Shown: one piece after another, positions 28,965 to 37,076 of the stretch | How the letters are laid out: every line of letters begins with the position of its first letter | Position numbering within the stretch: position 1 is the stretch's first letter | Assembly (NCBI GenBank): GCA_964638945.1 | Contig: CAZXCC010000001.1 | Coordinates: 47,945-111,944, forward strand | Origin: an uncultured Veillonellaceae bacterium | GTDB lineage: Bacteria; Bacillota; Negativicutes; UBA1444 | DNA: 64,000 nt | Direction: 5' to 3' | Program-made: the position numbers and the translations under genes | The notes under the pieces: generated by a model | Told to the model about the DNA's origin: nothing | The model's input: the letters and a program-made list of their open reading frames with translations, nothing else | Database searches by the model: none

Positions 28965-30320
28965 ATGGCGACAAATGCTCAAAAGTACTGTGAAGAACTA
29001 TATCGGCGAGTTGTCGAACGAAATGCAAACGAACCGGAATTTCACCAAACTGTCAAAGAGGTTCTTTTTTCTTTAGTCGGTGTGCTTGATAAACATCCGG
29101 AATATATTGAACTGGGAATCGTTGAACGCCTTATGGAGCCGGAACGGCAATTTATTTTCCGGGTGCCTTGGATGGATGACTCCGGCAAGGCAAGAATGAA
29201 CCGTGGATTCCGTGTGCAGTTTAACAGCGCGATCGGGCCCTTTAAAGGCGGTTTGCGATTCCATCCGTCGGTTAATCTCAGTATTATGAAGTTTTTGGGC
29301 TTTGAACAAATTTTCAAGAATTCGCTGACAGGGTTACCGATCGGCGGAGGCAAAGGCGGTTCCGATTTTGACCCGAGAGGCAAGTCGGATGCGGAAATGA
29401 TGCGGTTCTGTCAAAGTTTTATGACGGAGCTTTACAGATTTATCGGTCCGGATACCGATGTTCCGGCCGGCGATCTGGGTGTTGGCGGGAGAGAAATCGG
29501 TTATCTTTTTGGACAATACAAGAGAATTAAAGGGAGTTATGAAAATGGCGTTCTGACAGGGAAAGGAATTCCCTACGGAGGAAGTTTGGCGCGTACGGAA
29601 GCAACAGGTTTTGGCATCACATATTTCTGTCAGGCGATGTTGCAGTCCAAAGGAATGTCGTTTGATGGCAAGACCGTTGCCGTATCCGGTTTTGGGAACG
29701 TTTCCTGGGGCGTTGTATCGAAGGTGACCGAACTTGGAGGCAAGGTTGTTACCCTTTCAGGTCCTGACGGATACATTTATGACCCGGATGGAGTGAGCGG
29801 CGAGAAGATCGAATATATGCTCGAGATGAGAGCGTCCTGTCGTGACATGGTTCAGGATTATGCCGATAAATATGGTGTGAAGTTCTTCCCTGGCGAAAAA
29901 CCATGGGGTGTAAAAGTGGATGTAGTGATTCCCTGTGCAACACAAAACGACATCAATACGGAAGATGCGAAAAATATCGTTGCCAACGGAGTAAAATTCG
30001 TTTGTGAAGGCGCAAATATGCCTTGTACCAATGAAGCTGTAGACTACTTCCTGGAACATGGAGTGTATGTTGGACCGTCTAAAGCCGCGAACGCCGGCGG
30101 GGTGGCCACTTCTGCGCTGGAAATGTCGCAGAACAGCATGCGGTTATCGTGGACTTTCGAAGAAGTAGATCAAAAGTTAAAGACCATTATGAGCAATATA
30201 TACAAAAATTCCAGCGAAGCTGCCGAAGCCTTTGGACATAAAGACAACCTGGTTGTGGGCGCGAATATCGCCGGCTTCATCAAGGTTGCCGAAGCTATGA
30301 AGGCGCAGGGAATGGTATAG
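28965..30320 (+). CDS. gdhA: NADP-specific glutamate dehydrogenase
   Basis: [16 protein letters not shown] motif; 451 aa. Confidence 0.9.
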
Positions 30321-30345
30321 AATAAGTCTGTATGCGTTTGGCTTG

Positions 30346-30385
30346 AAACAAGGGGCTGTTCAGTATTGAACAGCCCCTTGTTTTC
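30346..30385 (+). terminator. rho-independent terminator of gdhA (16-bp stem AACAAGGGGCTGTTCA / TGAACAGCCCCTTGTT plus TTTT)
   Basis: read directly. Confidence 0.8.
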
Positions 30386-30439
30386 GTCGGTAAAGCGGGT
30401 GAGTTATCAACCCGCAATGGAAATTGCTCGAAGGGACTC

Positions 30440-30550
30440 TTGTCAGGTGAAATGTCGGGAGTTATAATAAGCGCAGGGCGTCAGTTTTTTGACACCATCG
30501 GAGCAAAGATGCTCGATTCTCCTATCGGAGGTCGCAGCATCTTTTTTTGA
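30440..30550 (+). ncRNA. candidate small RNA or leader/attenuator: consensus sigma-A promoter (TTGTCA, 17 nt, TATAAT at 30463-30468) and about 75 nt later a hairpin plus T7 terminator (about 30497-30548) just before the PAS sigma-54 activator gene
   Basis: promoter and terminator both read directly; no ORF between them. Confidence 0.4.
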
Positions 30551-34088: not shown

Positions 34089-34360
34089 ACGACGACATCA
34101 TCATTTGCCGGTGTGAGGACATTACGTTGTCGGAAATCACAGACTGCATAGAAAATGGCGACCGTTCAACGGAAGAGGTCAAACGTTCCTGCCGCTGCGG
34201 AATGGGCCCCTGCCAGGGCCGCACATGCATGCCGCTGGTGGCTCAGGAGTTGGCAAAAGCGACAGGAAAGAATGTGGGAGAAGTCAGTCTTCCCACTTTC
34301 CGCCAGCCTGTAGCGTCGATCAAGCTGGGAGCCTTGGCCGGGGGTGACGGGGATGAGTAA
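34085..34360 (+). CDS. BFD-like [2Fe-2S]-binding small subunit
   Basis: CRCEDIT...CRCGMGPCQGRTC motif; ATG after AAAGGAGGAG, ATGA overlap with upstream gene (the ORF track shows a longer N-terminal extension from 33902). Confidence 0.55.
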   Translation: MNDDIIICRCEDITLSEITDCIENGDRSTEEVKRSCRCGMGPCQGRTCMPLVAQELAKATGKNVGEVSLPTFRQPVASIKLGALAGGDGDE

Positions 34361-35501
34361 AACTGCGGATGTAGTTGTCATTGGCGGTGGAATCATAGGC
34401 TGCTCTACGGCGTACAACTTGGCACGGCTCGGCGCCGGCAGGGTGGTGCTTGTGGAACGTGGTTATCTTGCGAGTGGGGCGACTGGACGTTGCGGCGCCG
34501 GTATGCGAATGCAATGGGGAACGGAGACCAATTGTCTGTTATCTCGTGAGAGTACCCGGATGCTGGAACAATTGCCGGAAATTCTTGATGTGGATATCGA
34601 TATAGAATTAAAACAGGGCGGATATCTGCTTTTGGCCTATACGGAAAAAATGGCCGAGCAATTCAAAAAAAACCTCGTTTTGCAGGCGAAACACGGCATC
34701 CCTTCCTACTGGGTCACACCGGCGCAGGCGAAAGAAATCGTGCCGCATCTAAACACAGAGGGATTGCTTGGCGCAACTTTTTGCCCCAAAGATGGTCACT
34801 GCAATCCTTTTAAAGCAACGGCCGCTTATGCCAAAGCCGCAAGACGGCTGGGGGTGGAGATTCTGACGCATATGGAAGTGACCGGTATCGAGGAGGAAGG
34901 CTGTCGCATTAAAGCAGTGAAAACCAATCAGGGCGAAATCGTTACACCCAAAGTAGTCGTCGCTGCCGGCGGATATACCAAACAACTCGGGCTTATGGTG
35001 GGGGCGGAAATTCCTGTTTATCCGGAGCGTCACGAGATTTTGGTGACAGAACCGGTGGAACCGATGCAGGAGTCGATGGTTATGAGTTTTCATCATAATC
35101 TATATTGCCAGCAGAGTCCACACGGCAGCTTTATCATGGGAATTGGACATCCGGATTTGCCGGAGAGTTTTGATATCCGTTCCAGTTGGCAGTTTTTGCG
35201 TGAGATGGCCGAGAGACTCATCAAAATACTGCCGCCATTGGCTGGACTGAATGTTGTGCGTCAATGGGCCGGACTATATGATATGTCGCCGGATCGTCAG
35301 CCAATACTTGGACCGGCAGGAGATGTGGAAGGATTTCATGTTGCCGCAGGGTTCAGCGGACATGGCTTTATGATCGCTCCGATCACGGGACAGATTGTCG
35401 CGGAACAACTTTTGGGACTCCCCACAACATTGCCTGTCGGCATGCTGGATGCGGGAAGGTTCCGCCGTGGAGACTTGTTTATCGAGCCATCCGTTGTATA
35501 A
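34344..35501 (+). CDS. FAD-dependent amino acid dehydrogenase/oxidase catalytic subunit (DadA/HcnC/PDH1 beta-like)
   Basis: VVVIGGGIIGCSTAYNLAR FAD motif; 385 aa. Confidence 0.7.
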   Translation: MTGMSKTADVVVIGGGIIGCSTAYNLARLGAGRVVLVERGYLASGATGRCGAGMRMQWGTETNCLLSRESTRMLEQLPEILDVDIDIELKQGGYLLLAYTEKMAEQFKKNLVLQAKHGIPSYWVTPAQAKEIVPHLNTEGLLGATFCPKDGHCNPFKATAAYAKAARRLGVEILTHMEVTGIEEEGCRIKAVKTNQGEIVTPKVVVAAGGYTKQLGLMVGAEIPVYPERHEILVTEPVEPMQESMVMSFHHNLYCQQSPHGSFIMGIGHPDLPESFDIRSSWQFLREMAERLIKILPPLAGLNVVRQWAGLYDMSPDRQPILGPAGDVEGFHVAAGFSGHGFMIAPITGQIVAEQLLGLPTTLPVGMLDAGRFRRGDLFIEPSVV

Positions 35502-35528
35502 ATAGAAAAATATAGGGGGAATAATCTT

Positions 35529-37076
35529 ATGTTGACAGAATATCGCAATGAACCGTTCACAAATTTTTCCCTGCCGGAGAACAAGGCTGCGATGGAGGCC
35601 GCACTCGCTCTGGTTGCATCGCAAAAAGGCCGTCACTACCCACTCCGGATTAACGGAGCTTCTGTGGATACGGAGGCCAAAATTACATCGGTCAACCCGT
35701 CCTGTATCAAGGAGGTCGTTGGAACGGTTGCGAGGGCAAACAGTGAACTTGCCGAAAAAGCGGTGCAGGCGGCAGTGACGGCATTCAAAAGCTGGAAACA
35801 GGTTGAGCCGGAAACACGTGCGAGGTTGTTGTTCAAAGCGGCTGCAATTTTACGCCGCCGCAAATTTGAATACTCTGCCTGGTTGGTGGCGGAGGCCGGA
35901 AAGAATTGGGCGGAAGCGGATGCTGACACAGCGGAAGCGATCGATTTCATGGAGTATTATGGGCGCGAAATGCTGCGTTATGCGGAAGGCATGACGGTGA
36001 CGTCCTATCCGGGAGAACAGAATGAGTGTTTTTATATTCCCTTGGGTGTTGGCGTCGTGATTCCGCCATGGAATTTCCCACTGGCCATTTTGGCAGGGAT
36101 GACGGCCGCTGCTGTTGTTACAGGAAATACTGTCATTATGAAACCGGCAAGCAGTACGCCGGTGATTGCCGCGAAACTTATGGAGCTGTTTGAAGAAGCC
36201 GGTGTGCCGGCAGGTGTAATAAATTACCTGCCTGGAAGTGGAGGCAGTATCGGTGACTTTCTTGTAACGCACCCACAGGTTCGTTTTATTAATTTCACCG
36301 GATCGAAGGAAGTCGGCCTGCGAATCAACAAACTTGCGGCTGATGTAGCGCCGGGACAAATCTGGATCAAACGCGTGGTTGCGGAGATGGGCGGCAAAGA
36401 TGCCATTATTGTCGACGAAGAAGCTGATCTGGAGGAGGCGGCTGCAGGCATCGTGACATCGGCTTTCGGTTTTCAGGGGCAAAAATGTTCAGCCTGTTCG
36501 CGTGCGATTGTGGTAAAAAGCGTATATGAAGAACTGGTGGCAAAAGTCGCAGCAAAGGCCAAAGCTCTTCGTGTGGGTCCGGCAGCGGAATTCGGCGTGA
36601 ATCTGGGTCCCGTTGTGGACGAAGGCGCTTATAAAAAAGTGCTTGAATATATTGAAATTGGCAAGAAAGAAGCCCGTCTGGTTGCTGGCGGAAACAAAGC
36701 GGGTGAGGAGGGGTGGTTCATTGAACCGACGGTGTTTGCAGATGCAGCGGCAAAGTCACGAATTGCGCAGGAAGAAATTTTTGGTCCGGTTGTTGCAATC
36801 ATTCCTGCCGATGATTTCGACGACGCACTGGATATTGCAAATGGTACGGAATATGGACTTACCGGCGCAGTCTACTCGAAAAATCGCGCAAAATTGGAGA
36901 AGGCCCGCCGTGAATTTCATGTCGGAAACCTCTATCTGAACCGGAAATGCACGGGAGCATTGGTTGGAGTACAGCCGTTTGGTGGATTCAACATGTCGGG
37001 TACAGATTCCAAAGCCGGTGGTGCAGATTATTTGCTTTTATTCCTTCAAGCGAAAGCAGTGGCGGAAAAATTGTAA
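35529..37076 (+). CDS. rocA: L-glutamate gamma-semialdehyde (1-pyrroline-5-carboxylate) dehydrogenase
   Basis: 515 aa aldehyde dehydrogenase with RocA/PutC-type N-terminus [10 protein letters not shown] and catalytic EMGGK / Cys region. Confidence 0.8.

Follow-up and report, generated by a model that had tools for sequence, protein, structure and literature searches.

Two types of L-proline dehydrogenase (L-ProDH) complex have been described in the literature on archaea. One is the four-subunit alpha-beta-gamma-delta type of Pyrococcus horikoshii, which we take to be the enzyme called PDH2 and to which the Thermococcus profundus enzyme presumably also belongs; the other is a two-subunit type (PDB 1Y56), presumably PDH1. 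This naming and the subunit masses of the enzymes reportedly go back to Kawakami 2004/2005 and Tsuge 2005. In the four-subunit type, gamma is a separate chain of ~19-20 kDa and delta one of ~8-10 kDa. Here we analysed a 64-kb stretch of DNA (64,000 nt, called the window) from an uncultured Veillonellaceae bacterium, in which the gene for a sigma-54 activator is followed by five closely packed genes for iron-sulphur and flavin subunits and then by rocA, the gene for delta-1-pyrroline-5-carboxylate (P5C) dehydrogenase. All genes of this module lie on the + strand (Table 1). The five-gene set is colinear with the archaeal four-subunit cluster, and the operon is likely to be an inducible one for the catabolism of L-proline to L-glutamate.

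The window proteins were compared with the products of two P. horikoshii/P. furiosus loci (two-subunit and four-subunit types). The 1Y56-type enzyme has a two-gene locus, for alpha (489 aa) and beta. The other P. horikoshii paralogue sits in a four-gene cluster encoding alpha (479 aa, Fer2_4 and Pyr_redox_2 domains), gamma (168 aa, Fer4), delta (88 aa, BFD/SO_alpha_A3) and beta (377 aa), and these gene sizes fit the alpha-beta-gamma-delta enzyme. The small [2Fe-2S] protein of the window is 56% identical to residues 1-94 of the four-subunit-type alpha, and the flavoprotein encoded next to it is 52% identical to residues 119-477 of the same chain. Gamma is 39% identical to P. horikoshii gamma over its full length, delta shows 49% identity to P. 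horikoshii delta and 39% to the C-terminal part fused in the two-subunit-type alpha, and beta is 36% identical to the beta of the four-subunit locus. The gene order alpha-gamma-delta-beta is shared by the window and loci L082, L087 (Thermococcus peptonophilus) and L088 (Candidatus Bipolaricaulota). Alpha is a single chain in archaea and is split in the window into polypeptides of 101 aa and 362 aa. Judged by these alignments, the five-gene set is of the alpha-beta-gamma-delta type with alpha split in two, a five-polypeptide variant. In L087 (positions 1-7164), a sodium:solute symporter gene is followed by two-subunit (alpha, beta) and four-subunit (alpha, gamma, delta, beta) clusters in tandem.

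Watanabe et al. (PMC4575208) listed as motifs of the family two ADP-binding motifs, two kinds of Cys motif and an R-x-W motif in beta, and all of these were found in the window proteins. The motif C-X4-C-X2-C-X12-C can be read in the small subunit, and the C-X-C ... C-X4-C of delta aligns with P. horikoshii delta. Gamma has eight Cys that are invariant in 14 sequences, together with an extra C-terminal domain; searched against PDB, its profile found generic 2x[4Fe-4S] domains only, with no solved relative beyond the ferredoxin core. The R-x-W FMN motif is present in beta. The alpha core carries two GXGXXG dinucleotide-binding motifs, GAGPAG and GAGNIG, predicted to bind FAD and NAD(P)H. The second of these is retained in the window alpha and in the four-subunit-type alpha and is lost in the two-subunit-type alpha. 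The original prediction, an earlier reading of this DNA, had likened the complex to PDH1. The separate gamma and delta and the kept second GXGXXG place it instead with the alpha-beta-gamma-delta type, and the window does not show the PDH1 arrangement of a fused Cys domain, an ATP site replacing the NAD(P)H site and no ferredoxin subunit. An L-proline:acceptor activity giving P5C is predicted for the complex, as is an NADH dehydrogenase activity for alpha; these predictions have indirect support, from the linkage to P5C dehydrogenase genes described below and from the retained NAD(P)H motif.

The best PDB match of beta was 1Y56_B, the P. horikoshii L-ProDH beta (E = 1.1e-82, 281 bits, ~38-40% identity), followed by SoxB (173 bits, ~1e-50) and glycine oxidase (≤135 bits). 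A neighbour-joining tree (Kimura distances, 378 columns, 200 bootstraps) was made from 23 bacterial and 16 archaeal beta sequences and from labelled OoxB, SoxB and ThiO sequences of plasmid records. A tblastn search of beta against plasmids gave informative labels for these three only and none for HcnC, LhpB or HypO, and the tree is without HcnC and the D-hydroxyproline dehydrogenase beta. The bacterial sequences formed one clade (99%), the archaeal L-ProDH beta of both types formed another (100%), and the two clades were sisters with 99% support against SoxB, OoxB and ThiO. The window beta is 37-45% identical to the archaeal beta sequences in the tree and 26-29% identical to OoxB/SoxB/ThiO (single outgroup sequences: OoxB ~27%, SoxB 29%). 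Together with the subunit alignments, this grouping with archaeal L-ProDH beta rather than with ThiO or OoxB, in a tree that left out HcnC and D-hydroxyproline dehydrogenase, agrees with the original prediction of a Thermococcales-type heteromeric L-ProDH rather than PutA. One bacterial sequence behaved differently. The beta of L088 falls inside the archaeal clade, and its locus has the archaeal four-gene form with a fused alpha, as if it had been transferred between the domains. Its neighbours are an adjacent aldehyde:ferredoxin oxidoreductase gene (AFOR, 1857-3773), ornithine cyclodeaminase and a proline racemase fragment.

The subunit composition and the tree also bear on whether the complex could be an HCN synthase-like glycine dehydrogenase of the HcnABC type. 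A Fer2_4 small subunit, a pyridine-nucleotide-disulfide-oxidoreductase-type subunit and a DAO-type subunit are shared with HcnABC; nevertheless we consider this identity extremely improbable. Descriptions of the three-subunit relatives (opine dehydrogenase, D-hydroxyproline dehydrogenase and HCN synthase) name just alpha, beta and gamma subunits (PMC4575208). The oox locus of a Ti plasmid, when read, consisted only of ooxB, then a small 2Fe-2S gene, then ooxA, with no 4Fe-4S gene and with the BFD-like Cys domain fused to OoxA. HcnB likewise has a fused BFD-like domain. In the tree without HcnC, beta groups with archaeal L-ProDH, and the conserved neighbours of the cluster are P5C dehydrogenase and peptidase genes.

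These neighbours were identified in a distribution scan using one genome per species, which covered 80 loci of 575 confirmed relatives, with beta identities of 52-88%. Rather than being peculiar to one bacterium, the same five genes recur across many anaerobic bacterial phyla: the cluster was found in Negativicutes, many Clostridia, Peptococcaceae, Thermotogota, Atribacterota, Halanaerobiales, Tissierellia, Izemoplasmatales/Acholeplasmataceae, Sumerlaeota and Zixibacteria. By tblastn with the window proteins, the five-part gene order was present nearly everywhere among the 80 loci, and alpha was split in all complete colinear bacterial loci (69/69).

An aldehyde (P5C) dehydrogenase gene directly adjoins the cluster in about 29 of the 80 loci. 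In Negativicutes, one Peptococcaceae locus and Izemoplasmatales/Acholeplasmataceae, this neighbour is of the RocA type (57-90% identical to the window RocA), and rocA occupies the same position as in the window in L001, L003-L007, L013, L053, L069, L074 and L076. In the closest genome (L002, beta 88% identical), a 414-aa minus-strand open reading frame (ORF; 11218-12462) separates beta from rocA and interrupts the operon. The aldehyde dehydrogenase next to the cluster in Thermotogota and many Clostridia is ~33% identical to the window RocA, and a representative of this group passes the TIGR01236 model (805 bits against a cut-off of 614). As classified by these models, two P5C dehydrogenase families (TIGR01237 and TIGR01236) are independently recruited neighbours of the cluster. 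At other loci, a gene for Xaa-Pro dipeptidase comes right after beta, with genes for M19 and M20 dipeptidases and Opp/Dpp transporters behind it. The case for L-proline as the substrate and P5C as the product rests most firmly on the two recruited P5C dehydrogenase families and the proline-peptide genes. In eight bacterial loci (L011, L012, L016, L028, L030, L031, L041 and L051), AFOR immediately follows beta or immediately precedes the first gene, in 6/8 of them in the usual position of the P5C dehydrogenase. AFOR may take over the oxidation of glutamate semialdehyde as a ferredoxin-linked substitute.

The same linkage argues against a different substrate. The scaffold is common to D-hydroxyproline dehydrogenase, opine dehydrogenases, HCN synthase and sarcosine oxidase and has switched substrate repeatedly, so that the complex might act on another imino or N-alkyl amino acid (trans-4-hydroxy-L-proline, D-proline, D-hydroxyproline, L-pipecolate, sarcosine or an opine), with proline at most a side substrate. 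One opine enzyme near L-ProDH does not use proline (PMC4575208), the archaeal alpha4beta4 enzyme is reported in the literature to act on L-pipecolate too, and databases label the genes 'sarcosine oxidase subunit beta' or generic (FAD-dependent) oxidoreductase. We nevertheless judge another main substrate to be quite unlikely, given the two unrelated P5C dehydrogenase families beside the cluster and the prolidases in other lineages. Pyrroline-2-carboxylates would result from the oxidation of D-proline or D-hydroxyproline, and their further conversion calls for a reductase or deaminase and not a P5C dehydrogenase. The locus is without an epimerase, a DHDPS-like deaminase and a KGSA dehydrogenase, all of which the sigma-54 'sox' cluster of Bacillus thuringiensis has (PMC4428206). 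Features of SoxA, SoxD and SoxG are missing, the soxA and soxB model scores are far under their cut-offs, and OoxB and SoxB are outgroups in the beta tree.

Sarcosine oxidase SoxABDG was also tried as an identity for the complex and rejected: beta scored 195 against the soxB cut-off of 529, the soxA score was 179 against 1164 and covered positions 170-498 of 996, and no soxD or soxG gene was found at the locus with Pfam and NCBIfam. As a separate observation, the published B. thuringiensis sigma-54/SoxR 'sarcosine' cluster (HD73_3138-3147) contains genes for 'sarcosine oxidase' alpha and beta, a proline racemase-like protein, a DHDPS-like protein, an aldehyde dehydrogenase and an amino-acid carrier (PMC4428206). 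Judged by its genes, it seems closer to a pathway for hydroxyproline, with a heteromeric D-hydroxyproline dehydrogenase, than to one for sarcosine.

Table 1. Genes and regulatory features at the proline dehydrogenase locus, in window coordinates.
Feature	Coordinates	Strand	Evidence or remark
gdhA, NADP-type glutamate dehydrogenase	28965..30320	+	NF006929, 716 bits vs cut-off 536
Sigma-70-like promoter of the activator gene, TTGTCA-17-TATAAT	30440..30468	+	11/12 consensus positions
Second activator-site-like palindrome, TGTCAAAAAACTGACG	30479..30494	-	1 mismatch
Sigma-54 enhancer-binding protein, PAS + AAA+ (GAFTGA) + HTH_8, PrdR-like	30575..32062	+	Pfam, NCBIfam
Putative upstream activator site, perfect palindrome, TGTCGGAAAACTGACA	32049..32064	+	overlaps activator stop codon
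Terminator-like hairpin and T-run, AAAACCGGC...GCCGGTTTTTT	32111..32147	+	read from sequence; ends activator transcript
Sigma-54 -24/-12 promoter element, TGGCATGGTTTGTGCA	32155..32170	+	2 mismatches to consensus
Small [2Fe-2S] subunit, 101 aa	32202..32507	+	Fer2_4, E = 2e-30
Alpha core flavoprotein, 362 aa	32504..33592	+	Pyr_redox_2 + Pyr_redox (Pfam)
Gamma, 2x[4Fe-4S] ferredoxin-like, 164 aa	33594..34088	+	Fer4 families (Pfam)
Delta, BFD-like / SO_alpha_A3 Cys-cluster subunit, 91 aa	34085..34360	+	Pfam
Beta, DAO-family FAD subunit, putative catalytic	34353..35501	+	DAO, E = 6e-83
rocA, L-glutamate gamma-semialdehyde (P5C) dehydrogenase, operon gene 6	35529..37076	+	TIGR01237, 790.8 bits vs cut-off 659.65
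Long hairpin and U-run	37174..37233	+	z = -3.25
LivJ-like lipoprotein, solute-binding protein	37355..38536	+	Peripla_BP_6

Of the five genes, the first two overlap by 4 nt, the second and third are 1 nt apart, and the last two junctions are overlaps of 4 nt and 8 nt; the 27-nt spacer between beta and rocA contains a ribosome-binding site. The rocA gene is almost certainly on the same transcript as the five-gene set, as the original prediction assumed in placing rocA with the cluster rather than as a separate gene. The genes, the sigma-54 promoter and the tight coupling are as it described them, except for two start codons: the true start of the Fer2_4 gene is the GTG at 32202, and that of beta is the ATG at 34353, giving 382 aa, the length found in all homologues, and not 385 aa. 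Weak terminator-like matches within the operon were no more numerous than expected from shuffled sequence.

The -24/-12 element TGGCATGGTTTGTGCA is not beyond chance by itself, as the window contains 23 such matches at 2 mismatches where 13.3 +/- 4 are expected; its support comes from its position. Related loci with an adjacent or nearby activator gene were read by eye, and in all ten of them (11/11 with the window) a -24/-12 element lies just upstream of the first gene. This conserved position, with an activator site nearby, favours the sigma-54 control proposed in the original prediction. A regular-expression scan found a -24/-12 element in 20/67 bacterial loci, indicating that sigma-54 control is lineage-specific.

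The palindrome TGTCGGAAAACTGACA lies ~100 bp upstream of the -24 element and exactly matches a motif kept at the same place in L001, L003, L005, L006, L007 and L013. With up to 2 mismatches the motif occurs at 6 sites in the window against 1.4 expected, a number reached by 0/100 shuffles. PrdR binding sites are of the TGT-N10-ACA type (PMC6615313), and TGTCGGAAAACTGACA fits this pattern (tested as TGT-N10-12-ACA). The best NCBIfam model for the activator was likewise PrdR (NF041552), the proline-responsive activator of the C. difficile proline reductase operon, with 566 bits, which is below the cut-off of 795; the match covers profile positions 135-575 only, and positions 1-134 are missing. 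The closest genome, L002, has an equally short ORF (494 aa), and the Sporomusa carbonis version has 589 aa. The original prediction of a RocR-like activator holds for the domain layout; by sequence and binding-site type, the activator is PrdR-like.

The second palindrome, TGTCAAAAAACTGACG, lies just downstream of the activator's own promoter, and sites in the same position precede the activator gene in L002 and L006, which suggests that the activator autoregulates through this site. The activator leader (30469-30551) also holds a strong terminator-like hairpin and U-run (~30497-30551, z = -3.5) just before the ribosome-binding site. The order of sigma-70-like promoter, activator-site-like palindrome and terminator-like hairpin may be an autoregulation/attenuation arrangement. 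An Rfam scan of the whole window gave zero matches, so the leaders are not explained by any riboswitch.

According to the original prediction, gdhA was part of the sigma-54 module, and the pathway would run on to 2-oxoglutarate. In favour of this, gdhA directly precedes the activator gene in the same orientation, its promoter region contains a weak likeness of the activator site, with 2 mismatches (28837-28852), and the B. subtilis RocR/SigL regulon takes in the glutamate dehydrogenase gene rocG (PMC10404663). If gdhA shared the regulon, one control would govern a route from proline to 2-oxoglutarate. We consider this unlikely. The gene has its own sigma-70-like, AT-rich promoter (28870-28898) and its own terminator hairpin (~30350-30385), and no -24/-12 element was seen upstream when the sequence was read, the sole nearby pattern match being inside the gene. 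In the seven closest loci (L001-L007), gdhA is not adjacent to the cluster. About 1.4 two-mismatch activator sites are expected by chance in the window. The product is of the NADP-specific type by NF006929, and NADP-specific glutamate dehydrogenase is usually assimilatory. Membership of gdhA in the module is thus not supported, nor is the step to 2-oxoglutarate.

From the gene content, the colinearity and homology with the archaeal clusters, the placement of beta, the linkage to P5C dehydrogenase and proline-peptide genes, and the conservation of promoter and activator site, we infer a substrate, cofactor path, inducer and electron acceptor for the complex. The PrdR-like activator would sense its inducer, probably proline or a close metabolite, through its PAS domain and bind TGTCGGAAAACTGACA. 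It would then open the sigma-54 promoter, giving one transcript of six translationally coupled genes. The FAD of beta would oxidise L-proline to P5C, and electrons would leave via FMN at the alpha/beta interface and then a chain formed by the [2Fe-2S] of the small subunit, the Cys cluster of delta and the two [4Fe-4S] of gamma. Their end point would be the FAD/NAD(P)H site of alpha and/or an external carrier such as ferredoxin. RocA would oxidise the ring-opened semialdehyde to glutamate.

Several points weigh against this reading. The bacterial members are assigned from sequence and gene context, and beta is just 36-38% identical to the characterised archaeal enzymes of both types. An opine dehydrogenase beta is close to archaeal L-ProDH by BLAST and is inactive on L-proline (PMC4575208), which means that the substrate cannot be read from beta similarity alone. 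The -12 element reads GTGCA instead of TTGCA, and no rpoN gene occurs among the annotated ORFs of the window. The operon is without a dedicated proline permease, the only candidate nearby being the LivJ-like binding protein. The potential of P5C/proline is about -120 mV and that of NAD+ is -320 mV; direct reduction of NAD+ or ferredoxin by proline would be strongly uphill.

A flavin-based electron-confurcating (or bifurcating) mechanism would meet this last difficulty. On the basis of the subunit composition, the redox potentials and the gene neighbourhood, we put it forward as a tentative and rather unlikely proposal. The complex would have three redox entry or exit points, the proline site on the beta FAD, the NAD(P)H site on the alpha FAD and the 2x[4Fe-4S] gamma, and reduced ferredoxin would drive the transfer of electrons uphill from proline to NAD+. 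Such a ferredoxin-driven mechanism is reported for the lactate dehydrogenase/Etf complex of acetogens. Many hosts of the cluster are fermenters generally thought to be quinone-free. If confurcation does occur, it would explain how quinone-free fermenters (Thermotogota, Atribacterota, Izemoplasmatales) oxidise proline, and also why AFOR lies beside the cluster in 8 bacterial loci and the Bipolaricaulota locus. A literature search found nothing relevant on a bifurcating proline dehydrogenase. Elsewhere in the window (514-2076, 45300-47967 and 61421-63954) are genes for histidine ammonia-lyase, the [FeFe]-hydrogenase maturase HydF, an aspartase/fumarase-family lyase and a 2-oxoacid:ferredoxin oxidoreductase, in keeping with an anaerobe that ferments amino acids and uses ferredoxin.

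Our literature search for a bacterial member of this kind of enzyme found no description, only archaeal accounts. As far as the alignments and the beta tree go, the bacterial enzymes are a widespread and distinct clade with a five-polypeptide layout, here joined with P5C dehydrogenase under a PrdR-like sigma-54 activator. The assignment as L-proline dehydrogenase gives a testable function to a cluster that is widespread in anaerobes and routinely labelled 'sarcosine oxidase' or 'FAD-dependent oxidoreductase'. It would fill the proline-oxidation step in organisms where no PutA-type enzyme is linked to the pathway, and the archaeal 'dye-linked' enzyme is seen to have a large bacterial sister clade. 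Sporomusaceae and Clostridia, in which members occur, are perhaps more tractable hosts than hyperthermophilic archaea in which to seek the natural electron acceptor. An oxidative proline operon would also be added to the sigma-54/PrdR-type repertoire, previously tied to reductive (Stickland) use of proline.

Downstream of rocA, the long hairpin and U-run probably terminates the operon transcript and/or forms a leader structure for the gene that follows, which encodes the LivJ-like lipoprotein. This gene has its own sigma-70-like promoter (37095-37123) and a strong terminator (38556-38597), and a 74-76% identical counterpart follows rocA in L001, L003, L004 and L005 (Sporomusaceae). The protein may be an uptake or sensing component. 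Given its own promoter and the hairpin and U-run between it and rocA, the gene is probably a functional partner of the operon, yet a separate transcript. It is followed by a 191-aa Glu/Arg/Gln-rich repetitive ORF (38682-39257, +) and a 955-aa ORF (39386-42253, +), both with no Pfam match.

A second sigma-54 activator is encoded in the window at 2127-3725 (+) and is followed by a long set of genes. The -24/-12 consensus is matched perfectly at 5934-5949 (TGGCACGGCTCTTGCA) and with one mismatch at 4596-4611. The region (2127-23295) encodes parts of a Mo-hydroxylase (Fer2_2, MoCoBD_1, MoCoBD_2 and FAD_binding_5), an amidohydrolase, a Fer4 protein, a 3-hydroxyisobutyrate-dehydrogenase-like protein, aconitase-like large and small subunits, a B12-binding mutase, PrpF, a MutL-like reactivase and a PEP_mutase/ICL-type lyase. 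We take it to resemble the nicotinate fermentation cluster of Eubacterium barkeri, and this nicotinate-cluster-like region is apparently under sigma-54 control.

Of the known systems, PutA (or monofunctional PutB/PRODH with PutC) has the same predicted chemistry, from proline through P5C to glutamate. However, its PF01619 beta8alpha8 barrel is unrelated to the DAO/GR2-type fold with Fe-S subunits in the window, and the annotated window ORFs of ≥150 aa showed no Pro_dh domain. In SoxABDG, SoxB and the N-terminal half of SoxA are homologous to beta and the alpha core, whereas the folate-binding C-terminal half of SoxA is missing in the window. OoxAB/OdhABC, LhpBEF and HcnABC share with the window a separate small Fer2_4 protein, a pyridine-nucleotide-disulfide-oxidoreductase-type alpha and a DAO-type beta, but they have no 4Fe-4S gamma gene, their BFD-like domain is fused to alpha, and their substrates and neighbours are different. 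P. horikoshii PDH1 (1Y56) provides the closest solved structure for beta, and the Cys domain at the C-terminus of its alpha is a homologue of the window delta. It differs in having two subunits and no 4Fe-4S subunit, in the fusion of the Cys domain, and in an alpha without the 2Fe-2S cysteines or the second dinucleotide motif.

For regulation, the closest systems are Clostridioides difficile PrdR and B. subtilis RocR/SigL, in which a PAS-AAA+-HTH activator likewise stands beside the -24/-12 promoter of an amino-acid catabolic operon. As with RocR, rocA is a target in the window, while the binding site is of the PrdR type. The target differs from both: PrdR acts on the reductive prd operon and RocR on arginine/ornithine genes, whereas the window operon encodes a predicted oxidative proline dehydrogenase. 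The enzyme itself is closest to the archaeal alpha-beta-gamma-delta L-ProDH, with the same four modules, the same gene order, identities of 36-56% and the same Cys, GXGXXG and R-x-W motifs. It differs in that alpha is one chain in archaea and that the window beta belongs to a separate bacterial clade. The characterised four-subunit enzyme comes from hyperthermophilic archaea, whereas the host of the window is a mesophilic-looking anaerobic bacterium; the archaeal loci that were read have neither a P5C dehydrogenase gene nor sigma-54/activator control, and the window operon has both.

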